A DNA stretch of 64,000 nucleotides from an uncultured bacterium (GCA_963745865.1 CAVUYZ010000003.1:467809-531808); one strand, 5' to 3'; positions 10,214-53,531 are shown, counted from the stretch's first letter. Program-made: numbers and translations. The notes: a model not told the origin generated them from the sequence alone.

Positions 10214-10289
10214 GCGGAAGTAGCTCAGTTGGTAGAGCGCAACCTTGCCAAGGTTGAGGTCGCGGGTTCGAATCCCGTCTTCCGCTCCA
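10214..10289 (+). tRNA. tRNA-Gly (GCC)
   Basis: Cloverleaf GCGGAAG...CTTCCGC-TCCA, anticodon loop TTGCCAA, GTTCGAA T loop. Confidence 0.97.
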
Positions 10290-10329
10290 AGGCCGGACTC
10301 GTCCGGTGCTTGGATCCGTCATGGATCAC

Positions 10330-10403
10330 GGCGACGTGGCCGAGTGGTTAGGCACGGGTCTGCAAAACCTGTTACCCCGGTTCAATTCCGGGCGTCGCCT
10401 CCA
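10330..10403 (+). tRNA. tRNA-Cys (GCA)
   Basis: GGCGACG...CGTCGCC-TCCA, anticodon loop CTGCAAA. Confidence 0.95.
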
Positions 10404-10415
10404 ATTCAACTTCCC

Positions 10416-10490
10416 GGGCCCTTAGCTCAGCGGGAGAGCGCTTCCCTGACACGGAAGAGGTCACTGGTTCAATCCCAGTAGGGCCCACCA
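10416..10490 (+). tRNA. tRNA-Val (GAC)
   Basis: GGGCCCT...AGGGCCC-ACCA, anticodon loop CTGACAC. Confidence 0.96.
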
Positions 10491-15113: not shown

Positions 15114-15217
15114 AGGCCATGCAACGCCCTGAGGGAGCGTTGTATGCCGGCGCTCCCCGCCCCAGCTTCCTCACGGAACCGCGAGCGAGGCAATGGCCCT
15201 GTGTCTACTGTCAGGTC

Positions 15218-15901
15218 ATGGACATCGTTCTCATCGCCGGTCTGTGGTTGCCCCGCTCGATCTGGGCCGACGTTTCCGACGAGCTGGAACGGCTCGGGCA
15301 CCGCCCGATGGCCGTGTCCCTCCCTGGCGTAGATGATGCCGATACCGCTGCAACTCTTGCCGATCAGGTGGCCGCGGTACTGCAGGCTGTCGACCACGCT
15401 GAGCGGCCAATGGTGGTGGGCCATTCGGCCGCGTGCACCCTTGCGTGGATGGTCGCCGATCAGCGAGCAGAGGCCATAGATCAGGTCGTCCTGGTCGGCG
15501 GATTCCCGGCGTCCCATGGCGAGGCCTACGCCGACTTCTTCCCGGCGGTCGATGGGGCCATGGCCTTTCCCGGTTGGGAGCCGTTCGAGGGCGCGGACTC
15601 GTCCGACCTCGACCTGGCTGCGCGGGAGCGCATCGCCTCGCTGGCGGTTCCCGTCCCTGAGAGCGTCGCTCACGGGGTGGTGCAGTTGAGCGACGACCGC
15701 CGTTTCGAGTTGCCAGTCCTTCTCGTGTGCCCCGAATACGGCCCCGACCAGGCCAGGGCGTGGATCGCCGGCGGTGACGTCCCCGAGCTGAGTTGGGCCA
15801 CCCAGATCGCCTACGCCGACATCGACTCCGGGCATTGGCCGATGGTCACCCGGCCCGTCGAATTGGCGGGGATTCTCAACGCTGCGGCCCAGGGCGACTG
15901 A
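15218..15901 (+). CDS. Alpha/beta hydrolase
   Basis: VVGHSAA nucleophile elbow, SGHWPM. Confidence 0.88.
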   Translation: MDIVLIAGLWLPRSIWADVSDELERLGHRPMAVSLPGVDDADTAATLADQVAAVLQAVDHAERPMVVGHSAACTLAWMVADQRAEAIDQVVLVGGFPASHGEAYADFFPAVDGAMAFPGWEPFEGADSSDLDLAARERIASLAVPVPESVAHGVVQLSDDRRFELPVLLVCPEYGPDQARAWIAGGDVPELSWATQIAYADIDSGHWPMVTRPVELAGILNAAAQGD

Positions 15902-24419: not shown

Positions 24420-24491
24420 GGGCGCTTAGCTCAGCGGGAGAGCGCTGCCTTCACACGGCAGAGGTCACTGGTTCGATCCCAGTAGCGCCCA
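24420..24491 (+). tRNA. tRNA-Val (CAC)
   Basis: GGGCGCT...AGCGCCC-A, anticodon arm CTGCC-TTCACAC-GGCAG; CCA not encoded. Confidence 0.95.
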
Positions 24492-43386: not shown

Positions 43387-45234
43387 TCACGCGTAACCGT
43401 ACGCCTCAGCCCGCTCGTCGAGGACTGCGGTGACCTTGGTGCGCAGCTCGTCGAAGAACTCGGGGGTGTTGAAGTATGGGAGCTTGCTCGCGGGGGCAGG
43501 CTGGTGGGCCTCTGCAGGGAGCGCATAGTCATCTACCTCGTAGCCGACCCGGCGCTCGAGCGCGTAGCCGCGCACCCAGGTGCGGTCGACCGCCGCCCGC
43601 AGTTCGTCGGCGGTCACCTCGAGCCCGGCAGCGATGCCGAGCGCCTCGGCGATGAGCACCGGGTCGAGCGCGGCGAACTTGCACATCCCGGTCATATCGT
43701 CCAGCAACGTCATCGGACCACGGTTGGTGATGGCATCCACCCAGTAGTCCATCCCGGTCTCCCGTTCGAGGATCACCAGGATGAACGTCTTCATCGACAT
43801 GTGCCCGCCTGCCAGCGCCCACGGATACCCCGGATTGGAATGCGGGACGTACGCCGGGAACTCGACACCCTTCGACTGCATGGCGAAGTCGAGCGACCCC
43901 GTGCGCATAGCAAACCGGAGCGTGCCTTCACCCACCTCGGGCAGGCGGCCCTCGGCCACGCCGTGGATCGCTGCGACGATGGCGTCGTAGTCACCGTACG
44001 AGAGCCCGTCTACGAATTGGTTGTCGGGGTTGCGCAGGTTCCACTCCATGATGTGGCCGAGGCTCACTCCCAGCGAGATCGAATCCATCGCCAACTCGTC
44101 GACCAACGCCACGAGGTCCAGCGCCTGGTCGACGTCGTACAGGCCCAGATTCGATGACAAGAGGGTGAACGGTTCGTAGTCGACCTTGGTGCGGAACGGC
44201 CCGGCCTCACCGTCGACCTCGTCGTAGATGTTCTTGTGGCACTTGATCCCACACAGGTAGCAACTCTCCGCTTTGATCTCGTATGGGCCCCGCTCCACTG
44301 CTTTGCGGGTCAGTGCAACACCCCGATCGGTTCCGGTCGGGTTGAAGTTGTACTCCGGCAGCACGCCGTTCTCGTGTTGGAGCGGCACCTGCCGCCACGT
44401 GCCGCCTGCGCCGTCGTCTCGGTACGGCCAACTTCCCTTGCCGAGGTTGGCCTCCCTGTTGATGTCCTTGAGACCGCGCGAGCTGATCTTCGGGTTGGGC
44501 CCGTCCGCGGCGATCGCGTACAGGTTCTTGGAGGCGAGCACCCCGCCATATCCGCCGCGGCCGCAATAGCGGGCTTTCGGATCGCCGGTCTTCAACTGGT
44601 TCTCTGTGGAGAGGGCGATCGAGGCGTAGCGGACGTTCTCGTAGTTCTGTGCCGCAGGTCCGATCACGGCGAAGTGGGCGTCCGGATACTGCTCGTGGAG
44701 TGTCAAGATCCGCTTGTTGACGTGCAGTTCTCCCAGTCCGGAGGCGTCGAGGAATTCGAAGTTGGCGGGACCGTCCGGGCCCTCCGGGTCGTCCGACTGG
44801 GTCAGATGGATCATCCTGGGCGAGGAGGCCCGTCCGGTGAACACCACCTCGTCGATCCCCAGGCCGCGCAGCTTGGTACCGAACTTGCCGCTTCCAGCGC
44901 TCCACATCAGCCCGGGTTTCCCGCTGCGTGACATCTTGAGCGGCGAATAGCCATGGAAATACGTGCGCAGACCCGTCATGACGCGGGTTCCGCTGAGCAG
45001 ACCCAGGTTCATGACGATCGGTGCAGCCGGGTCGTAGGCGTCGTCGACCTCGACCCCGGAGAGGAGCTTGGTGGCTCGGGCGATCCCACCCAGCACGTCC
45101 TCGAGGTCCTCGCATTGGACCCTCTCGAACCGCACCGTCTCGGTGGTGAGGTCCACGTGGTATCGGTTCACCGAGAAGGCGGTTGGCGGGTGCAAATCAG
45201 ACTCCGTCGCCTTGTTCTCGGTATCTACCGGCAT
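43387..45234 (-). CDS. Aldehyde ferredoxin oxidoreductase family (tungsten/bis-pyranopterin) enzyme
   Basis: SAGSGKFG..L, IGPA, CGRGGYGGVLASKNLYAI, CYLCGIKC, DYE, DSISLG, GMCKF. Confidence 0.92.
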   Translation of the reverse strand: MPVDTENKATESDLHPPTAFSVNRYHVDLTTETVRFERVQCEDLEDVLGGIARATKLLSGVEVDDAYDPAAPIVMNLGLLSGTRVMTGLRTYFHGYSPLKMSRSGKPGLMWSAGSGKFGTKLRGLGIDEVVFTGRASSPRMIHLTQSDDPEGPDGPANFEFLDASGLGELHVNKRILTLHEQYPDAHFAVIGPAAQNYENVRYASIALSTENQLKTGDPKARYCGRGGYGGVLASKNLYAIAADGPNPKISSRGLKDINREANLGKGSWPYRDDGAGGTWRQVPLQHENGVLPEYNFNPTGTDRGVALTRKAVERGPYEIKAESCYLCGIKCHKNIYDEVDGEAGPFRTKVDYEPFTLLSSNLGLYDVDQALDLVALVDELAMDSISLGVSLGHIMEWNLRNPDNQFVDGLSYGDYDAIVAAIHGVAEGRLPEVGEGTLRFAMRTGSLDFAMQSKGVEFPAYVPHSNPGYPWALAGGHMSMKTFILVILERETGMDYWVDAITNRGPMTLLDDMTGMCKFAALDPVLIAEALGIAAGLEVTADELRAAVDRTWVRGYALERRVGYEVDDYALPAEAHQPAPASKLPYFNTPEFFDELRTKVTAVLDERAEAYGYA

Positions 45235-45321
45235 ACCCGACTACCTCCGTTGGACTGCTGAAAGACTGTAATGGAACGGGTGTGCGCCAGACTTCCCAGC
45301 CGTGCAACGTCCCGACCACCC

Positions 45322-47253
45322 TCAGTCGGTGAAGCCGGCATCGGTGAGCCGCCGGCGTGCCGCTGGGTCATCGAGGAGCCGGCGCAGGGTCGTCACTGCC
45401 GGGCGGTCCCAGCGGTCCTCGCGCACGGCCACGTCGTATCGCTCGTCCGCCACGAATCGGAACTCGAGTCCAGCATTGATGGCGATGGTGTCCAGAGTCA
45501 TCCCCCAGTCGGCCCGCCCCTGCTCGACGGAGGCCGCCACTGCATGGTGGGTTCTCGCCTGATGCAGATAGCCGTCGGGGCGGGCCCCGGCCAGCATGCG
45601 ATCGATGAGGATGCGGGTGCCGCTTCCCGGGTTGCGATTGATCATCCGCCGCTCACAGAGTTCGGCCATGAAGGCCTGCTCGTCGTCGACCATGTCGGCC
45701 AGCGGGTCGTCGGAGCGGAAGACGATTCCCTGGCGGCGGCCGTAGCCGTGGATCAGGCGGACGCCGTCGGGCAGGAAAGGCGTGTTGTACTGCCCGGTTT
45801 CCTCGTCGAGGAGGTGGACGCCGGCGACATCGCCTTCTCCCCGGGCTACCGCCGCCAGCCCGGCTGTCGAACCCACCGGAATCGATTTCACCCGGAACCC
45901 CTCGGCCGCCACGAGACCGAGCAAGTCGTCGAGGCCGATGCAGTGACTGCCGATGGCCACCAGGTCTGCGGGGCGCAGATCCGGGTCGATCAGCCGAACC
46001 TCGACCTCGGTTCCTTCCTCCAGGTATTCGTGGTTGGAGGGGATGCGGATGAAGCCATCGGCCCGGGCGAAGGCGGTGACGCTCCCGGAACCCGCCCCCA
46101 GCGGATACGCAACCAGGCCCGTGTCGCCCTCCACGAGGTCCACCAACGTGTATTCGGCGCGACCCGGGACGGAGGTGATCCGCATCGGCGCCGCGGCCCG
46201 CACCGTGCGGATGTCTCCGGCGGACAGCCCGGCCAGCCGGCGAAGCAGCGGGGCTACGAACTCGTGGAACGTGAACACCGCCGACGTCGGGAACCCCGGC
46301 AGAACCACGACCGGCGTACCGTCGATCACGGCCAGCAGGATCGGTTTGCCCGGCTTGAGCGCCACCCCGTGGACCACCACGCCCGGCGAGTCGGGAAAGC
46401 GTTCCGCCAGGCGCGTGACCATGGTGGCGTTGATGTCGCCGTCGCCCTTCGAGGTTCCGCCAGAGAGCAACACCACGTCGACGTCGTCGGGGCCAGAGAC
46501 GAGCGGGGCGACGGCGGCATCGAGCAACCGCTCGTCGTCAGAGACGACTCCGCACGCGACCGGCTCGCAGCCCAATTCGGCAACCGAGTCGAGAAGCATC
46601 CGCTGATTCGAGTCGTACACCTGACCGGTGGCGAGCGACCGGCCCGGGGGGACGATCTCGTCGCCGGTCGACACCACAGCGACCCGGGGTCGGACTATCG
46701 CCTCTACGCGGTCCACGCCAACCGAGGCCAGGACGGTCGTCTCCCGGGCAGTGAGTCGCCTGCCGCGGCGCATCACCACCTCGCCTCGGCCGATATCGGA
46801 ACCGGCGAAGGTGATGTTGCCGCCCGGGACGGCGGGCTTCGACACCCGGATACCGTCGGGGTGAGGTTCGGTGTTCTCGACCATCACCACCGCGTCGGCG
46901 CCGCGTGGAACGACGCCGCCTGTGGCGATCGGCACTGCGGTGCCAGGCGCCACCTCGAACCCTGCCGGTGGAGCGTGACCGGCAGCCAGCGAAACATCGG
47001 CGAGTGCCAACACCACTGGCTCCAACTCCTCTGCCCCGAAGGTGTCCGAAGCTCTCACGGCGAAGCCGTCCATGTTGGAACGATCGAAGGCGGGCACATC
47101 CACCTCGGCGGTGACATCGGCAGCCAGCACACGATGCAGGGCCACATCGAGCATCACGTTCTCGGTGCGCGGCTCCAGGTGGGCGCACGCCTCGTCGAAC
47201 CGGCGGTGGGCCTCGCCCTCGTCGATGACATCCAGGAACTGTCTCTGTTTCAC
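45322..47253 (-). CDS. moeA: Molybdopterin biosynthesis protein: MoeA fused to a PBP domain
   Basis: FDRSNMDGFAV, STGDE, SGGTSKG, KPGKP, LPGFP; C-terminal GSH..GS..GL, NRNPGSGTR. Confidence 0.93.
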   Translation of the reverse strand: MKQRQFLDVIDEGEAHRRFDEACAHLEPRTENVMLDVALHRVLAADVTAEVDVPAFDRSNMDGFAVRASDTFGAEELEPVVLALADVSLAAGHAPPAGFEVAPGTAVPIATGGVVPRGADAVVMVENTEPHPDGIRVSKPAVPGGNITFAGSDIGRGEVVMRRGRRLTARETTVLASVGVDRVEAIVRPRVAVVSTGDEIVPPGRSLATGQVYDSNQRMLLDSVAELGCEPVACGVVSDDERLLDAAVAPLVSGPDDVDVVLLSGGTSKGDGDINATMVTRLAERFPDSPGVVVHGVALKPGKPILLAVIDGTPVVVLPGFPTSAVFTFHEFVAPLLRRLAGLSAGDIRTVRAAAPMRITSVPGRAEYTLVDLVEGDTGLVAYPLGAGSGSVTAFARADGFIRIPSNHEYLEEGTEVEVRLIDPDLRPADLVAIGSHCIGLDDLLGLVAAEGFRVKSIPVGSTAGLAAVARGEGDVAGVHLLDEETGQYNTPFLPDGVRLIHGYGRRQGIVFRSDDPLADMVDDEQAFMAELCERRMINRNPGSGTRILIDRMLAGARPDGYLHQARTHHAVAASVEQGRADWGMTLDTIAINAGLEFRFVADERYDVAVREDRWDRPAVTTLRRLLDDPAARRRLTDAGFTD

Positions 47254-48767
47254 GGGAAGGCTCCGGCGTCGTACAAGTGGACCTCGATCTCAGTCCCTTC
47301 CGGGTATCCCTCGAGACCCGACGGAATGATCACGAACCCGGTCGCTCGGGTCACCGACGACAGGACCGACGCACCCGACACGGCCAGCGGTTCGACCATC
47401 CCGCCGCGCACCACCACTCGGGCATAGTCGGTGCGCCCGATCTGAGAGACCAGTCGGGTGCGGAGCGGCAGCCGCACCACCCGATACGGCCAGGCGGGTG
47501 ACAATCCGCCCAGAGTGCGGATCACCGGGCCGGCGAAGAAGTCGTAGGCCACCAGACACGACACCGGGTTGCCGGGTAGAACCAGCACCGGCTTGCCACC
47601 GATGCGTCCCACTCCGCTGGGCGACGAGGGACGCATTGCCACCCCGTGCACCGCCAACTCGCCCAGCTCCGCCACCAGCAGCGGAACCCGATCCTCGGTA
47701 CCCACCGAGGCGGCGCCAGCGGTGACGATCACATCGGCGCCCGATGCGGCCAGTGCCTCCCGCATTCGGTCGGCGTCGTCGGGGAGGCGAACGACCTCCG
47801 GAATGCCGCCGTCGCGAACGGTCAGCGCCGACAGCATGGGCGAGTTGGAGTCGACGATCTTCGACCCCGATGGCGTGCTGCCCGGCGCCAGTAGTTCGTC
47901 GCCGGAGACGACGATCCGCACTCGCGGCCGTCGATACACCAGTACCGGGTCCTGCCCGATCGACGACATCAACCCCACGTCCTGGGGAAGCAGGTGGCGA
48001 CCCTTGGTAAGCACGGTGGTGGCCGGGTCGATGTCCTCGCCGACCCGGCCGACGTTGCGACCCGGCGCCACCCCGGCTCGCACGGCAAGCTTCCCGTCGA
48101 CTTCGTCGGCGTCCTCGGCCCGCACCACGGCGTCGGCGCCGTCGGGAACAGGCGCCCCAGTCATGATGCGGACGGCCCGGCCCGCTCCCACCGATGCCTC
48201 TGATCCGGCTCCCGGCATCGACTGACCGGAGATCGCCAGCAGCACGGGGTCGTAGGTCGAGGCGCCGTAGGTTTCGTCCGCACGAACGGCATACCCGTCC
48301 ATCGTGGCGCGCCGGAATGACGGCACCGCCACCTCGCTCACCACGTCGGAGGCAAGCACCCGCCCGGCAGACTCGGTGACGGATACGGCCTCCGGCTCGA
48401 GCGGCCCGACGCCGTCCAGAGCGGCGGACAGTGCCTGGTCGACGGTGGACCGCTCACGAAAGCCGCGCATCCGCACGTCGTCCGAGCCACCAGCTATCGC
48501 CACGATCACGTCGATCTCGTCACCCGGTGTCACGGGGGTGGTGTCCAGCTCATCCGCCGGCACCTCGGTCTCCCGACTGAACAGGTGCAGGTGCCCGTGC
48601 AGCCGGCCGTCGTCGGTGAACAGGCGAATGCGGGTGCGGGGGTGAGCTGCGACGAGCGCGTCGAGCACCTCGCCCACGGTGGAGCCGTCGAGCTCGACGG
48701 CTTCCTGATCCTCTGTATACCGGCGCAGTGCTTCGGGGAGGCGAACCGTCACCACGAGTCGCGCCAC
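47250..48767 (-). CDS. moeA: MoaD/ThiS-like domain fused to MoeA
   Basis: Ubiquitin-like N-terminus ending AIAGG, in frame with ATMDGYAV, IMTGAPVP, SGDEL, LPGNP. Confidence 0.9.
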   Translation of the reverse strand: MARLVVTVRLPEALRRYTEDQEAVELDGSTVGEVLDALVAAHPRTRIRLFTDDGRLHGHLHLFSRETEVPADELDTTPVTPGDEIDVIVAIAGGSDDVRMRGFRERSTVDQALSAALDGVGPLEPEAVSVTESAGRVLASDVVSEVAVPSFRRATMDGYAVRADETYGASTYDPVLLAISGQSMPGAGSEASVGAGRAVRIMTGAPVPDGADAVVRAEDADEVDGKLAVRAGVAPGRNVGRVGEDIDPATTVLTKGRHLLPQDVGLMSSIGQDPVLVYRRPRVRIVVSGDELLAPGSTPSGSKIVDSNSPMLSALTVRDGGIPEVVRLPDDADRMREALAASGADVIVTAGAASVGTEDRVPLLVAELGELAVHGVAMRPSSPSGVGRIGGKPVLVLPGNPVSCLVAYDFFAGPVIRTLGGLSPAWPYRVVRLPLRTRLVSQIGRTDYARVVVRGGMVEPLAVSGASVLSSVTRATGFVIIPSGLEGYPEGTEIEVHLYDAGAFP

Positions 48768-49336
48768 ACCCGACCGGTTTGGCGATGGAATCGGGCAGCG
48801 ACTGCGCTACCGGTGCGCCACAGACCCCAACCCACGAGTCCACCGGCGGCGCCGAAAACGACGTGGTTGACCAGCGCGGCCGACAGGCCGTACAGCTCTA
48901 CGTTGCGCACGATGCCGGAGAACCAGACATTGGCGAGCACGAAGGCGAACTTTGCCACGTGGACGAGGACGCCGGCCGTCGTCGCTCCGAACAGCCCGCT
49001 GGCCGTCAGTCGGCGCACCCCGGGGAGATCCAACAGCGACCCAACGGCTCCATACAGCGCCAGGTTGTAGCCGAGCGAGTGACCGAGCCCGACGGGGACC
49101 GACCACAGACCCATCGAGACACCGGCAAGGGCGGCCATACCGGGGCGGCGATTGGCGAGCCGCCCGGAGATCAACACTGCGATCCACCCCATGCCGGCGT
49201 GACCGGGGATGCCCAGGTGGAAGTCGAGGTACTTCTTGGCGAGCGCACCCACCAGCCCGATCGCAACGGCCAGACCCAGGTCGCGAATCAGGCTTCGCCT
49301 ACCGGCGGTTGCCCTTGTCGGGGCGTACGTCTGCAT
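48749..49336 (-). CDS. ECF transporter S-component-like membrane protein
   Basis: About 195 aa, about six TM helices, LGIPGH motif; overlaps both neighbours. Confidence 0.65.
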   Translation of the reverse strand: MQTYAPTRATAGRRSLIRDLGLAVAIGLVGALAKKYLDFHLGIPGHAGMGWIAVLISGRLANRRPGMAALAGVSMGLWSVPVGLGHSLGYNLALYGAVGSLLDLPGVRRLTASGLFGATTAGVLVHVAKFAFVLANVWFSGIVRNVELYGLSAALVNHVVFGAAGGLVGWGLWRTGSAVAARFHRQTGRVWRDSW

Positions 49337-50036
49337 TGACCCAGGCTCCTTCCACGTGTCGAGCGGCGAAAACCGGCCGACCGTGAAGCAGGCGTGGCCG
49401 AACCCAATCACCGACATCGATGATAACTCCGCCGTCCAGGCCGGCTCCGGTGGCTACGTCGACCACCTGCCAAATGGCGGTGCGGTCAACCAGGTCGGCA
49501 ACGGTGATCGGGCCGGACACGTCGCGGATCCCGGGCAACCCCACGAACCGTCCGTCGTTGCCATCGGCGCGCAGAGCCGCCCCGCCCAAGGCACCGATCA
49601 TCCCGTCCTCGGTGCCATCCAGCCCAACCAGAGGGATGCCGGCGTCCGCGGCGAGCCGGACCGCCTCGGATCGGGTGACCAGGCCGCGCTGGGCGGCCCG
49701 GGCAAATGTCAACACTGCGTCGGGAACAGTTTCGTTCATGACGGCCACCCCAGGATCTGAACCAGGGATGGACTCGCGCGTGACGACGGCGGACACCGTA
49801 TCCAGGAGCTCGTACGGTGTCAGCGCGGTGGCAAAGACGATTGCTGCCGACGAGTTGCGCGATGTCTTGGGTACGCCCGGCCCTTCGTAGAATTGGTGTC
49901 TGGTGACTCCGAGGCTTTTGGCCACGTCGGCGAGCTCGTCGGTCATGCGACGGGCGAGCCCGCCCGTCCCGCCGATGCCGGGCATGTCGGTGTCGTCGAT
50001 GCCGACGACGCGTAGCTCACGGGATGCGGATTTCAC
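49299..50036 (-). CDS. Stand-alone TiaS N-terminal-like (GIDDTD) domain protein
   Basis: GIDDTD..GGTG, TRHQ, PKTSRNS, SDPG, GMIGAL; no OB or Zn-ribbon domain. Confidence 0.75.
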   Translation of the reverse strand: MKSASRELRVVGIDDTDMPGIGGTGGLARRMTDELADVAKSLGVTRHQFYEGPGVPKTSRNSSAAIVFATALTPYELLDTVSAVVTRESIPGSDPGVAVMNETVPDAVLTFARAAQRGLVTRSEAVRLAADAGIPLVGLDGTEDGMIGALGGAALRADGNDGRFVGLPGIRDVSGPITVADLVDRTAIWQVVDVATGAGLDGGVIIDVGDWVRPRLLHGRPVFAARHVEGAWVNADVRPDKGNRR

Positions 50037-50475
50037 CGACGTCCCGTACCCACCGCTCGCGCGCCAGAGTCTCCGCGGCAAGCTTGAGTGTCCCACGGTT
50101 GGTGACGTCGAGGATCCAGTTCTCGTCGGCTTCCGCCGCGGTGATGTCCAAACCAACCTCGAAGGTGCGTCCCTCACCCATGCCGATCACCTCGGCGGTC
50201 TGCCAGTCTTCCACCCCTGAGGCCGCGAGCACGTCGAGTAGACGGGGGCCGGTCTGCGTGTCGCCGTCGATGTTCAATTCAGCGAACGAGACTGACTCCT
50301 CGAGGGCGGTAAGCGTCCAGTCGGCAGCCAGCGCATCGCCGACGATCACTCGCAGCACGACGTCTTCCGCCGGAGGGTCGAGGGCGGGGGATTCATCTGC
50401 CGAACCGCCGCCACCGCATGCCCCGATCAGGGCCAGGGCGGCCATCAGCGCGCCCCGACGCGTGACTCTCGGCAT
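50017..50475 (-). CDS. Lipoprotein with a sulfite-oxidase-like molybdopterin-binding fold
   Basis: TRR plus lipobox LIGAC; GPRLLDVLAASGV and WVRDVGEI; RBS GAGGAGG. Confidence 0.65.
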   Translation of the reverse strand: MPRVTRRGALMAALALIGACGGGGSADESPALDPPAEDVVLRVIVGDALAADWTLTALEESVSFAELNIDGDTQTGPRLLDVLAASGVEDWQTAEVIGMGEGRTFEVGLDITAAEADENWILDVTNRGTLKLAAETLARERWVRDVGEIRIP

Positions 50476-50654
50476 GGCGACCTCCTCGGGATTCGACAGC
50501 CGATGACGATACCGTGCCGGCCGCGCCGGGTCCGGACCGCCCCTACGCGCTGGTTCGGTCGACCGAGCGTGCTCCGCAAATGCGCTCGTCCTGATGGATT
50601 CCCACGACCAGCGACGGCCACTGCGATCGTCTCATCGAACAGCGAGGTGTTCCA

Positions 50655-51773
50655 TCAACCAGTCATTGCGGCTTCTTGTCTGGATACGAGATGGTCGACC
50701 ACGTGTCCGGCGTCGATCGGCATGCCCGATAGCGTCTCCGACCAGAGCGCATGCAGGAAGAACAAGCCGCAGAAGTAGAGACCGGGTTGGTCGGCCACGA
50801 TGCCCCGTTGATGGACGGGTGATCCCCGATCGTCGAACACCGACAGGTCGATCCAGCCGAGTCCGGCTCGGAAGCCCGTGCACCAGACGACGTTGGCGAC
50901 GTCGAGCACGGTTCCGTCGGCGAGGACAGGGAGGCCGTCCTTGACGCCCATCACACGCTCGACTCGGCGAACGCCAGCGGACTCGAGATCGGCCGGTTTC
51001 ACCCGCACGATTGGTGCCCCACCGCCGTGTCCCAACAGCTTGGAGCGAACTCTGCGACCGATCGGCGTGCTGGTGTTCAGTATCCGGACCGCGCCGAAGC
51101 GGATGAGGCGAACACCGACATTGCGACCGAGCCAGGGCTCGATTCGGAATGGAATGACGACCGAAGGGTCTCCCGAGAGGTAGGTCGGGCGGGTCTTGGA
51201 GAGTTCGAGTCCGATGTCGGCGCCCGAGTTTCCGAACCCGACGACGAGGACCGGACCTTCAGCGAGCTGGGACGGGCGCTGATACTGGCTCGAGTGCATC
51301 TGGATGATGTCGGGGTCGAGGTCGGGTGCGAAGTCGGGCACGTACGGCACCTGGTAATCGGACATGGCGACAACCACGTTCGCTGATCGCAGGACTCCGA
51401 CTCCCGCGGTCTCCGCAACATAGGTGTCGCCGTCGAAGCTGAGGCGCGTCACCCTGCAATTGGAACGCACGGGGAGGTCATTCTCCTCTGCATAGCTCTC
51501 GAGGTATGCCGCGAGCTCGTCCTTGGTGATGTATTGGTCGCCCTTGGCGGGGAACGTCTTGCCGGGGAGGCCGTTGTACCTCGCAGGTGTGAACAGGAGG
51601 AGCGAGTCCCACCGCTTGCGCCAGGCGTCGCCGACGCGTTCGCTGGCGTCGAGGATCACGAAGTCGACCTTGCGTTTCGCAAGTTCGTATCCGACGGTCA
51701 GTCCGGTTTGGCCGCCTCCGATGACGATCGTGTCGGCGTATGTCGTTGTGGGTTCACGCTGTTCTCGGGTCAC
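50655..51773 (-). CDS. Flavin-containing monooxygenase-like FAD/NAD(P) oxidoreductase
   Basis: IGGGQTG, WRKRWDSL, HSSQY, VGFGNSG, WCTGF. Confidence 0.9.
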   Translation of the reverse strand: MTREQREPTTTYADTIVIGGGQTGLTVGYELAKRKVDFVILDASERVGDAWRKRWDSLLLFTPARYNGLPGKTFPAKGDQYITKDELAAYLESYAEENDLPVRSNCRVTRLSFDGDTYVAETAGVGVLRSANVVVAMSDYQVPYVPDFAPDLDPDIIQMHSSQYQRPSQLAEGPVLVVGFGNSGADIGLELSKTRPTYLSGDPSVVIPFRIEPWLGRNVGVRLIRFGAVRILNTSTPIGRRVRSKLLGHGGGAPIVRVKPADLESAGVRRVERVMGVKDGLPVLADGTVLDVANVVWCTGFRAGLGWIDLSVFDDRGSPVHQRGIVADQPGLYFCGLFFLHALWSETLSGMPIDAGHVVDHLVSRQEAAMTG

Positions 51774-51863
51774 TGTGGATCCTCTCGTCGGGGTTCCGAC
51801 AACGTATGACAGACAGCTCATCCCCGCATCGCCACTACTACCCAACCTGTGATACGGCTGACG

Positions 51864-51879
51864 TGGGTGGTTCTACCCA
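51864..51879. promoter_or_regulatory. Palindrome, probable operator of the adjacent LuxR regulator
   Basis: TGGGT-GGTTCT-ACCCA between the luxR and oxidoreductase genes. Confidence 0.4.
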
Positions 51880-51884
51880 GCGGC

Positions 51885-53531
51885 TCAGGCGAGTCCTTGC
51901 CTGATTGCAAAGGCAGTGGCCGCCGACCGGGAGGACACGCCGAGTTTCGTGAAGATGTTCGACACATGGCGATCGACTGTGCGTTCACTCAGGACCAGGT
52001 CGGTCGCGATGGAGCGGTTGGTGGCGCCCGAGGTCAACATCCGGAGCACCTCGACCTCGCGATCGGTGAGCCCAGCAGGCCACTCAGATGGGGACGGTCC
52101 GAGGAGTTCCTCGACGATGCGGACGTCTGGTGCCGCCCCGAGATCGACGAAGATCACCCGGGCTGCATCCAGTTCCCGGTTCGCGGACTCGAGGTTGCCC
52201 TGGGCCCGCAGAGCGCGGCCCAGGTCGAGCCTGGTGCGCGCCAGTTCGTACGGAATCGAGAGGTCCTGCCAGATGGTCTTGGCTCGCTTCAGGTGGCCGA
52301 CGGCCTGGGTCAGGCGGTTCTCCGTCAACGCCACCCGGGCTTCGGCATGCGCCGCCCACGCAATGTGGGCGTCGGTGCGCGTCGTTTCCGCAACGGTTGT
52401 GAGTTGCTCGGAAGCACGCTTGGCCTCCGGGAGCCGACGTGTTGCGACGGCCAACTCGACGTAGGCGGGGAGCAATTGGACATTGGCGAACAGGTCGACC
52501 GATTCGGCGAGCGACTCAGCGAGTGCGGTGAACGCTTCCTCCGAAGTCCCTTGTGCGAATTGGAGCAAAGCCATTCCTGGCATCGGATCGCCCCCGTTGA
52601 GGCTCACCTGGCGGAAGGCGCCAGTTGCTGCGTCGAGTTCGCCGCGCATCCGGTGGATTTCGCCGAGTTGATAGTTGGCCCGAGCGGCGATGCCGAACCG
52701 CGCCCCGAGCTCACCCACTCGCCTGGCCTCCTCGGCCGCCTCGGTCCACGCTCCCTGCAAGCGGAGGATCTCGGATCGGTGCGCCAGGCATTGATCGTTG
52801 AATGCGACCAGGTCGGGCTGTTCGCCGCACCAGTCGGTCAGCGAGCGGGTCCACTCCGCAGCCCGACTGATCGCGTGAGTCTCGTAACAGCCTTCGAGAA
52901 CGCTGCAATAGACGATGCCTGTGACCATCGCCGAGAGCCGAGAACCAGTCACCGAGATCATGATCTCATCGAGCAGCCGCAGTCCCTCGTCCGTCCTCGA
53001 AAGCCGGAGCAGGGCTCTGCCCTGGGCTTGCCCCGCCAGTGCCGTGAGGTCTGGATCGTCGAAGTGTCGACCGATGTCGGCCGCTCGAGCGCCCTCCGAC
53101 ACGACATGTTCGAACTCGCCTGCACCCGCGTGACGAAGGATCCGCGGCATCAGCAGGTAGCCGCGCTCGACGCAGTCCTCGGGAGCGCTGAGCAGGAGCC
53201 GCTCGGAAAGCTCGACCCACCCACTTGCCTGGGGGATCTTTCCCCTGCTCGCCAGGTTGATCGCAAGCCACAGAGCGGTCCTCGTCGCCAGGAGAACCTC
53301 ACCCTGCTCGAGATACGCGTGATAGGACCGTTCCTGGGTATCGAGCATCTCCGAGACGTTCCCCAGCATGTACGCGGTGGTCGCGAACAGTGCCAGATCG
53401 GCCGCCTCGAGCGGAGCTGCCTCGTCAGCGGCGGCAAAACACCGGTGAGCGTCGGTCCATGCTCGGTCGAGATAGTGGAGCCTGGCTCGATCCAGAAGAT
53501 CCGCCAGAGAGGAATCGTCATCGAATGCCAC
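51885..53531 (-). CDS. TPR-containing LuxR-family transcriptional regulator
   Basis: C-terminal LTDREVEVL...TVDRHVSNIFTKLGV. Confidence 0.92.
   Translation of the reverse strand: MAFDDDSSLADLLDRARLHYLDRAWTDAHRCFAAADEAAPLEAADLALFATTAYMLGNVSEMLDTQERSYHAYLEQGEVLLATRTALWLAINLASRGKIPQASGWVELSERLLLSAPEDCVERGYLLMPRILRHAGAGEFEHVVSEGARAADIGRHFDDPDLTALAGQAQGRALLRLSRTDEGLRLLDEIMISVTGSRLSAMVTGIVYCSVLEGCYETHAISRAAEWTRSLTDWCGEQPDLVAFNDQCLAHRSEILRLQGAWTEAAEEARRVGELGARFGIAARANYQLGEIHRMRGELDAATGAFRQVSLNGGDPMPGMALLQFAQGTSEEAFTALAESLAESVDLFANVQLLPAYVELAVATRRLPEAKRASEQLTTVAETTRTDAHIAWAAHAEARVALTENRLTQAVGHLKRAKTIWQDLSIPYELARTRLDLGRALRAQGNLESANRELDAARVIFVDLGAAPDVRIVEELLGPSPSEWPAGLTDREVEVLRMLTSGATNRSIATDLVLSERTVDRHVSNIFTKLGVSSRSAATAFAIRQGLA

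Follow-up and report, generated by a model that had tools for sequence, protein, structure and literature searches.

Organization of the gene cluster

The DNA considered here is a stretch of 64,000 nucleotides from an uncultured bacterium (GCA_963745865.1, CAVUYZ010000003.1:467809-531808), referred to below as the window; positions are counted from its first letter. Six genes on its minus strand (43387-50475) pose a question: what do a lipoprotein, a small kinase-like protein and a membrane protein, none of which has a Pfam or NCBIfam match above threshold, do beside two moeA-type genes and a gene for an aldehyde oxidoreductase (AOR)? The answer that we put forward, at about even odds, is that the six genes constitute one operon, which would acquire tungsten and build the tungsten-pyranopterin cofactor for the AOR.

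The lipoprotein gene comes first (50017-50475; 152 residues, an open reading frame (ORF) with a lipobox). It is followed by the gene for the kinase-like protein, which starts with GTG and whose product opens ...VVGIDDTD (49299-50036; 245 residues), the membrane-protein gene (48749-49336; 195 residues), a MoaD(ThiS)-MoeA fusion gene (47250-48767; 505 residues) and a MoeA-PBP_like gene (45322-47253; 643 residues). These five genes overlap, in that order, by 20, 38, 19 and 4 nt. After a spacer of 87 nt (45235-45321), which holds a GGAGG upstream of the next start codon, comes the AOR-family gene (43387-45234; 615 residues). The anatomy given in the initial annotation, five overlapping minus-strand genes with the AOR gene 87 nt downstream, was upheld. 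A scan of the locus for promoters and terminators returned nothing exceeding shuffled expectation.

The window's genome assembly is 81% complete. Related loci (numbered L) were taken from 52 species genomes that carry the gene for the GIDDTD protein, which we call the TCKD-like gene for reasons given below; together with metagenome contigs, they amount to 131 loci. Neighbouring genes in these loci were labelled by homology. A separate sample comprised 121 genomes from the window's order.

The membrane protein has the predicted fold of an ECF S-component

The AlphaFold2 (AF2) model of the membrane protein, made with 28 homologues, has a predicted local distance difference test score (pLDDT) of 92.6 and contains six to seven helices spanning residues 16-194. 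In a wide structure search with VIA-align against 48,161 representative PDB chains, ranks 1-13 were all solved S-components of energy-coupling factor (ECF) transporters, with Z scores from 16.3 (5edl) to 8.9 (3p5n). YkoE (5edl) was the best of these, followed by 4hzu_S and ThiT (Z 13.2) and by FolT, PanT, BioY, RibU and NikM (Z 10-12.6); CbiM and CbrT stood at ranks 15 and 16. Foldseek likewise gave 5edl as its best match. By its modeled fold, then, the membrane protein is an ECF-type S-component. Neither Pfam nor NCBIfam has a model for its family, whose members are named "hypothetical" in the databases. The family has an invariant P-G-H in loop 1; G83, F161, G162 and G165 are also conserved.

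The surroundings of distant homologues agree with this assignment. In Desulfobacteraceae, Poribacteria, Myxococcota, Spirochaetes and others, the gene order is TonB-dependent receptor, fused EcfAA', EcfT (CbiQ), TCKD-like protein, S-component. Genes for EcfAA' and EcfT adjoin the S-component gene in L034, L036, L037, L043, L046-L049, L054, L058 and many metagenome loci; over all 131 loci, EcfT was found in 35 and a TonB receptor in 33. The S-component gene adjoins the TCKD-like gene in 76 of the 103 loci long enough to judge. In the order sample, the identical nine of 121 genomes have both genes, always side by side. A complex prediction for the two proteins gave a score of 0.01, which has no bearing either way.

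The window's genome has a single EcfT, a CbiQ encoded on another contig within a cbiM-cbiQ-cbiO cluster. One CbiQ, encoded away from the operon, was likewise found in each of the 11 Acidimicrobiia carriers checked (ten genomes plus this one); the cbiM-cbiQ-cbiO clustering refers to this genome only.

The GIDDTD protein is a stand-alone TiaS kinase-domain homologue

The GTG start of the second gene is the same as in database cluster P0001. Against the Pfam model TiaS_TCKD, its product scored E 0.0018, below the cut-off. However, its AF2 model (pLDDT 90.2) matched the TiaS structures 5xob, 3amu and 3amt in Foldseek at E ~1e-9, over 152 columns and with a root-mean-square deviation of 2.8. A profile of the family compared with the PDB returned TiaS 3u02 at E 9.7e-11, with the IDDTD, PxVPxKTxxN, PG and GxIGxLAA blocks aligned. 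The GIDDTD protein is thus a stand-alone homologue of the TiaS kinase domain (TCKD), and it is probably an ATP-using enzyme. The family is sizable: 1165 representatives of 50%-identity clusters were found at E <= 0.001, and 277 at E <= 1e-30. Two members, P0092 and P0114, are labelled "ABC transporter substrate-binding protein" in NCBI records, a name that looks mistaken because the proteins have no signal peptide and have a kinase-domain fold. P0387 (428 residues, TCKD-like part 209-422) was considered as a fusion with an S-component and was rejected (hhalign probability 0.2%).

The TCKD-like gene also occurs with importers of other kinds. In L040, it lies between tupA and tupB-tupC, behind a GntR-PBP_like regulator. 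In L117:1085-4819, L125:232-3989 and L127:2942-6699, it ends the order FecCD permease, ATP-binding cassette (ABC) ATPase, Peripla_BP_2, TCKD-like gene; L055, L092, L121 and L124 hold this architecture in part. The best NCBIfam matches of the Peripla_BP_2 binding protein are siderophore and haem binders, all below cut-off. Among five genomes in which the TCKD-like gene has no adjacent S-component gene, four yielded no S-component homologue anywhere, and all four have a TupA-like gene. Because the TCKD-like gene follows importers of three classes (ECF, TupABC and FecCD/Peripla_BP_2), each in a tungsten context, a cytosolic step acting on an imported metal or on an endogenous cofactor intermediate is favoured. 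A subgroup from Dehalococcoidia (L042, L044, L050, L052, L056, L057 and, from Dehalococcoides mccartyi, L053) shows 36-38% identity and has a Zincin_1 gene upstream; the genomes of this subgroup do have TupA-like, MoaC and AOR genes.

The lipoprotein is predicted to resemble a molybdenum-cofactor-binding domain

The signal peptide of the lipoprotein includes ...LIGAC, and Cys20, at least 90% conserved, is the only cysteine: the mature domain has none. The protein has no Pfam match (E <= 0.1) and no NCBIfam match, and a profile search of the PDB gave only chance-level rows. Its fold was approached through a 63%-identical homologue, P0277. The ESM Atlas model of P0277 aligned with clusters of the Oxidored_molyb family (PF00174) at template modeling (TM) scores of 0.68-0.70 over 113-115 residues, one row passing the service's family-naming bar, and its feature scores to PF00174-bearing clusters of ~140 residues were 0.90-0.91. 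The window lipoprotein's own feature scores, 0.82-0.84, are a lead only, and hhalign against an alignment of PF00174 relatives gave a probability of only 3.7%. Judged through its homologue, the lipoprotein resembles a molybdenum cofactor (Moco)-binding domain in fold. We call it Moco-binding-domain-like, and not a member of PF00174, because sequence-level support and the cysteine that ligates molybdenum are both missing.

The lipoprotein gene lies upstream of the TCKD-like gene in 24 of the 52 genome loci and is present in 27 of all 131. We regard its product as a putative extracytoplasmic receptor.

For these three proteins the initial annotation is supported, two of its boldest guesses (S component and TiaS-like enzyme) included. 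Its S component, a protein of about six transmembrane segments, has both the fold and, in other phyla, the EcfAA'-EcfT neighbours of one; its "TiaS-like ATPase" has TiaS fold matches and kept motif blocks; and the tie that it drew between the lipoprotein and Moco finds a counterpart in the fold of the P0277 model.

MoeA proteins and the AOR-family enzyme

The fusion protein MoaD-MoeA exceeds the Pfam cut-offs for ThiS, MoeA_N, MoCF_biosynth and MoeA_C; its NCBIfam matches of the SAMP1/MoaD type are below cut-off. Its MoaD part ends in ...AIAGG (residues 91-95), and the MoeA part follows directly. This continuity with MoeA means that the MoaD-like domain would have a free Gly-Gly end only after cleavage of the protein; the MoaD-like gene of L019 and L020 is a separate one.

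MoeA-PBP_like matches NCBIfam PRK14498 with 698 bits (cut-off 534) and contains MoeA_N, MoCF_biosynth, MoeA_C and PBP_like (PF12727), the composition of a putative metal insertase with an oxyanion-binding domain. A third MoCF_biosynth match, just upstream of the window (C3:466500), was considered as another MoeA and was rejected: it is CinA.

The AOR-family protein exceeds the Pfam cut-offs for AFOR_N and AFOR_C, with 116 and 134 bits. It has the [4Fe-4S] motif CxxCxxxC at residues 325-332 and a further cysteine at 518. Its best PDB relative is 1aor (E 7e-24), and it reaches no equivalog model. It is a divergent member of the AOR family, presumably of the tungsten type. Its gene is the sole AOR gene found in this genome (a single tblastn and Pfam match). 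Many Acidimicrobiia relatives have a second, canonical AOR gene (an ORF of ~650 residues) immediately upstream of, and co-directional with, the lipoprotein gene: L013, L014, L015, L018, L021, L022 and L025, and, by tblastn only, L027. In the matching genomes, AFOR_C scores E ~1e-110 for this canonical enzyme vs. ~1e-39 for the window's type; the window has no canonical copy.

The module recurs with tungsten-linked genes

Do the three upstream families belong with molybdenum and tungsten (Mo/W) genes in other organisms? A tblastn comparison of the 52 genome loci found the trio of lipoprotein, TCKD-like and S-component genes together with MoeA genes in 15 loci of the Acidimicrobiia type (L007-L011, L013-L015, L017, L018, L021, L022, L025, L027 and L028, in the last of which the lipoprotein lies beyond the contig end), and in these the TCKD-like gene is tightly packed with the MoaD and MoeA genes. 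The trio is accompanied by a stand-alone MoaD gene and an AOR gene in L019 and L020. It has no MoeA or AOR gene nearby in six loci (L023, L024, L026, L029, L032 and L033). More widely, members of the families accompany tungsten enzymes in Actinomycetota, Chloroflexota, Desulfobacterota, Myxococcota, Spirochaetes, Poribacteria and others, so that enrichment near Mo/W genes, which the initial annotation had named as a check on its proposal, was indeed found in several phyla.

Riboswitches tie the module to tungsten more specifically. We scanned 26 of the 52 genome loci and 26 of the 80 metagenome loci for RF01055 aptamers. Six lie beside the module in four of these 52 loci (two each in L058 and L125, one each in L130 and L107), and the other 48 have none. 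In L058, tandem aptamers precede the order TupA-like protein, TonB receptor, EcfAA', EcfT, TCKD-like protein, S-component. The single aptamer of L130 is directly upstream of lipoprotein, TCKD-like and S-component genes, beyond which the genes are on the opposite strand. In L125, beside the FecCD-type architecture, the tandem aptamers have the TCKD-like gene on one side and a TonB receptor with ExbB on the other. In L107, the aptamer precedes genes for an ABC ATPase and a porin of the phosphate type. The P3 hairpin is missing from all six aptamers. According to Regulski et al. (PMC2408646), P3-less representatives of this riboswitch track tungsten-cofactor metabolism in 17 of 19 organisms, and the same P3 criterion for tungsten-cofactor sensing is used by Schut et al. 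(PMC11725836) in E. limosum. There, P3-less RF01055 aptamers are described as preceding importers and tungsten enzymes; among them are "Fe ABC-type" transporters, one of which is induced by tungsten limitation and which the authors interpret as iron importers (PMC11725836). Fluoride, thiamine pyrophosphate (TPP) and cobalamin riboswitches in the flanks of two of our loci (L031:14526-14587; L023:5050-5146 and 15214-15286) are probably unrelated, being several kb away and encoded on the other strand.

Transport and regulatory neighbours point the same way. The operon contains or adjoins a TupA-like gene in L015, L037, L040, L058, L069, L073 and L118; the sole NCBIfam match of these genes is TupA, at 97-251 bits and below the cut-off of 400. 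In L058, L037 and L069, they are part of ECF operons without tupBC. Adjacent regulators that combine a helix-turn-helix (HTH) domain with PBP_like were found in L037, L040, L041 and L055 by Pfam and in L043 by a phmmer label; we take this architecture to be that of the tungstate-responsive regulator TunR. UMP-kinase-like AA_kinase genes stand beside tupBC and the TCKD-like gene at L118:4684-5526 and L107:4735-5544 (minus strand). A relationship to the ATP-dependent Mo/W storage protein, a protein of the same fold, is possible.

The enzyme content of the carrier genomes is also telling. Of 35 carriers, 32 have AOR genes, with a maximum of 18 copies. In the order sample, seven of nine carriers have an AOR gene vs. 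12 of 112 non-carriers (Fisher p = 2e-5, a value that is overstated because the genomes are kin). This tally and the tally of MoaC in 21 genomes given below take in the unpublished genomes G015 and/or G028. In 15 of 36 carriers no TupA-like gene was found, so that another tungsten route is not obvious in them. All 15 have the S-component; they include G147, with its 18 AOR genes, and this genome, in which tblastn and NF041772 were used. Taken together, the riboswitches, the TupA and TupBC genes, the regulators and the co-occurrence with AOR make a strong link between the module and tungsten or the Mo/W cofactor.

Upstream of the cluster, FMO-like and LuxR-like genes (50655-53531) were considered as members of the unit. 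They were rejected, because tblastn found no match to them in any of the 52 loci. Elsewhere in the window are four tRNA genes, three of them clustered at 10214-10487 and one at 24420-24491.

Pterin synthesis in the carriers

The window itself contains no moaA, moaC, moaE or mogA gene and no Tup, Wtp or Mod gene. The initial annotation had made this observation, which holds for the window and does not extend to the genome: elsewhere, the assembly encodes MoaA (TIGR02666, 390 bits; cut-off 284), MoaE, a protein of the MogA/MoaB type and, with scores that exceed the cut-offs, ModA and ModB. Locus L060 (G000:C2:~260.4-263.7 kb) holds ModA, ModB and an ABC ATPase. The long ORF before ModA in this locus matches an HTH motif and the PBP_like domain of the MoeA type; modABC may thus have a regulator of the HTH-PBP_like kind as its neighbour.

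A search of the genome for moaACE and ecfAA'T thus recovered moaA and moaE, with cbiM-cbiQ-cbiO as the sole ECF system; for moaC, the 81%-complete assembly gave no match. All five genus-mates examined have MoaC, as do 19 of 21 genomes in another set and 34 of 35 carriers of the TCKD-like gene. The presence of MoaC in 34 of 35 carriers, together with MoaA, MoaE and MogA here, indicates that carriers make molybdopterin themselves. Salvage of the pterin is therefore not needed, though it would be possible as a supplement. The premise of salvage, an organism incapable of de novo pterin synthesis, is not supported by these data.

A model for tungsten acquisition and hand-over

In the explanation that we prefer, the cluster encodes a tungsten acquisition and hand-over module that feeds the MoeA pair and the AOR; we put its probability at roughly 0.5. 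The lipoprotein would serve as the extracytoplasmic receptor. The S-component would carry the substrate, most likely tungstate, free or complexed, through the membrane; in the window's lineage, it would act alone or with CbiQO, the genome's only ECF module. The TCKD-like protein would perform an ATP-dependent cytosolic step (activation, trapping or hand-over of the metal), after which MoaD-MoeA and MoeA-PBP_like would insert the metal into molybdopterin made by the cell. The data above show the gene anatomy, the folds, the co-occurrence and, in other lineages, the tungsten-linked regulation and neighbours; what the substrate is, which reaction the TCKD-like protein performs and in what order hand-over takes place are inferences.

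Tungstate is suggested as the substrate of the S-component by three lines of evidence: 15 of 36 carriers have no TupA-like gene, TupA-like genes occur in ECF operons, and L107 includes an anion porin. A bulkier ligand, a pterin or a chelate, is suggested by the usual substrates of such importers, by the Moco-binding-domain-like fold of the lipoprotein and by the presence of the module and tupABC in one locus.

Several observations speak against tungstate import and hand-over. Free oxyanions would be unusual cargo for ECF S-components, TonB receptors and FecCD importers, whose ligands are as a rule bulky and organic. The S-component module shares its locus with tupABC in L118 and L015/G124, and two importers for one ion in one operon would be unparsimonious. 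Nor is the distribution complementary to that of Tup, as TupB-like genes are present in five of nine carriers in the order sample; the genome's ModAB could, moreover, already supply tungstate. The window's own operon has no RF01055 aptamer: none reached the gathering score in the window, and none was found at E <= 1 in 50300-50900. Around the operon, none of the 11 Acidimicrobiia carriers checked has an ECF module, so that the S-component of this lineage must borrow CbiQO or act alone. An AOR gene is missing from three of the 35 carriers, and the Dehalococcoidia loci have neither an S-component nor a Mo/W neighbour. Finally, two fold matches lean toward a pterin: that of the lipoprotein to Moco-binding domains, and that of the TCKD-like model to HPPK (pterin pyrophosphokinases), its next-best match in Foldseek (E ~3e-3).

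These last matches bear on the proposal made in the initial annotation, which we now consider unlikely. There, the lipoprotein and the S-component capture an external pyranopterin (Moco, the tungsten cofactor (Wco), molybdopterin (MPT), cyclic pyranopterin monophosphate (cPMP) or a dephospho form), which the TCKD-like enzyme uses ATP to trap or re-activate before the MoeA pair loads tungsten. If so, the three proteins would be the first bacterial system to capture, import and re-activate an external pyranopterin cofactor or precursor, and the tungsten-cofactor riboswitches would turn the system off when cofactor is plentiful; such control would suit the import of a cofactor no less than that of a metal. 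In a variant that is nearly as novel, the TCKD-like enzyme would chemically activate tungstate with ATP and so give MoeA a tungsten-specific substrate in molybdate-rich water. In favour of salvage, the pairing of an S-component with a kinase is reminiscent of metabolic trapping in vitamin uptake, and vitamins and chelates are typical cargo of S-components, TonB receptors and FecCD-type importers. With differing substrates, module and tupABC in one operon (L118) are easier to understand, and the Oxidored_molyb-like fold of the lipoprotein and the fold match to HPPK fit as well. Pyranopterins, however, are very oxygen-labile, and the window's lineage presumably has a marine-type aerobic gene set. 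The carriers are pterin prototrophs; the lipoprotein has neither the Mo-ligand cysteine nor Pfam or hhalign support for PF00174. A kinase dedicated to pterins is also hard to reconcile with a TCKD-like gene that resides inside tupABC in L040, follows FecCD importers and exists without an S-component in four of the five genomes tested.

That independence from the S-component favours a second alternative, although we think it improbable: the TCKD-like enzyme has as its substrate an endogenous intermediate of tungsten-cofactor assembly, for example in a tungsten-specific adenylylation or in bis-pyranopterin formation, and the S-component imports another ion (Fe, Mg or other). The tight packing of the TCKD-like gene with MoaD and MoeA genes in Acidimicrobiia agrees with this, as does the iron-importer interpretation of the E. 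limosum authors (PMC11725836). The stand-alone riboswitch unit of L130 (lipoprotein, TCKD-like protein, S-component) instead speaks for a joint function, and S-component and TCKD-like genes co-occur strictly in the order sample (nine of nine). In addition, MogA/MoaB is already encoded in the genome.

Slightly less probable still is a metallophore route, in which chelator-bound tungsten or molybdenum is imported, the TCKD-like enzyme frees or processes the complex, and TupABC takes free tungstate. Two importers sharing a locus would thereby be accounted for. The TonB receptor with ExbB under tandem tungsten-type aptamers (L125), the recurrent FecCD-ABC-Peripla_BP_2-TCKD order (L117, L125, L127) and the siderophore- and haem-type matches of its binding protein, below cut-off as they are, all speak for this route, as does the tungsten-limited induction of an "Fe ABC-type" transporter behind a tungsten-cofactor riboswitch in E. 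limosum (PMC11725836). Yet no chelator biosynthesis genes were seen in any examined locus, the Acidimicrobiia loci have only the small lipoprotein, and our literature search gave no tungsten-specific chelator importer.

An association of the three upstream genes with unrelated Mo/W genes by chance would fit the six loci that have the trio but no MoeA or AOR gene nearby and the unrelated neighbours of the Dehalococcoidia subgroup, but it is very improbable given the Mo/W neighbours that recur in several phyla, the riboswitches at four loci and the AOR genes in 32 of 35 carriers: with such recurrence in related loci, the arrangement is not accidental.

Significance

Most waters contain far less tungsten than molybdate, and the selective uptake of tungsten and its loading into AOR-type enzymes are only partly understood; the known parts of the supply are TupABC, WtpABC and paired MoeA proteins. 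To these, the module adds three uncharacterised families: an S-component without a Pfam model, a stand-alone TiaS-kinase-like protein, and a cysteine-less lipoprotein with the predicted shape of a Moco-binding domain. Each is a defined target in the search for a new tungsten importer, an activation step or a route of cofactor salvage. The outcome would improve the annotation of anaerobic aromatic and aldehyde metabolism, and it may prompt a re-examination of "iron" ABC systems that lie behind tungsten riboswitches. Our literature search returned no description of this module, of an ECF-type tungsten importer or of TCKD-like proteins in Mo/W metabolism, and nothing on TonB receptors with Moco riboswitches or on bacterial Moco uptake.

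Comparison with known systems

The sulfite-oxidase-family Moco-binding domain (PF00174) and the lipoprotein are alike in the predicted fold of the lipoprotein's homologue. They differ in size (~170 vs. ~120 residues for the lipoprotein), in the lipoprotein's export and in the lack of sequence-level support; PF00174 relatives have an invariant cysteine, the Mo ligand, whereas the lipoprotein has only that of the lipobox.

With TiaS, the TCKD-like protein has in common a homologous N-terminal TCKD kinase domain and its motif blocks. We do not consider it a TiaS, since the tRNA-binding two-thirds, comprising the ferredoxin-like (FLD), OB and zinc-ribbon domains, is absent from its 245 residues, since it matches the NCBIfam TiaS model (NF040849) over positions 5-148 of 422 with only 27.7 bits (E 9.5e-7) vs. 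a cut-off of 600, and since it occurs in a bacterial host and beside transporters. Its best NCBIfam match is methanogenesis marker protein 11 (mmp11; TIGR03280, E 1.6e-12, 47 bits; cut-off 256). The match to the TCKD-like protein (window 49299-50177) is confined to the C-terminal half of mmp11 (model positions 132-280); mmp11 is likewise uncharacterised, and a literature search gave no paper on it. Methanogens use W/Mo formylmethanofuran dehydrogenases, and we speculate, from the homologous half, that mmp11 may likewise act in Mo/W handling.

ECF transporters resemble the window's system in the modeled S-component fold (YkoE 5edl, Z 16.3; NikM and CbiM, Z 8.6-10.2) and, in many related loci, in an operon with fused EcfAA' and EcfT. 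The window-type S-component differs in its obligate pairing with a TCKD-like cytosolic protein, in its company of a lipoprotein (monoderm-type loci) or of a TonB receptor and sometimes TupA (diderm loci), in its link to tungsten-type riboswitches and in having no Pfam or NCBIfam model; in the window's lineage, there is also no dedicated ECF module nearby.

The oxyanion importers TupABC, WtpABC and ModABC are similar in physiological context, neighbours, HTH-PBP_like regulators and riboswitch class, and TupA-like genes share operons with the module. The module is set apart by its class of transporter, with no TupA, TupB or TupC gene in the window and no TupA-like gene found in the genome. The closest published item is the tungsten-cofactor regulon of E. 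limosum (WOR1, TupABC, two "Fe ABC-type" transporters and FocA), which is not known to include an ECF S-component or TCKD-like gene (PMC11725836). The two systems have P3-less RF01055 aptamers in common, and the FecCD-type architecture with the TCKD-like gene resembles the "Fe ABC-type" systems that lie behind tungsten riboswitches in that organism.

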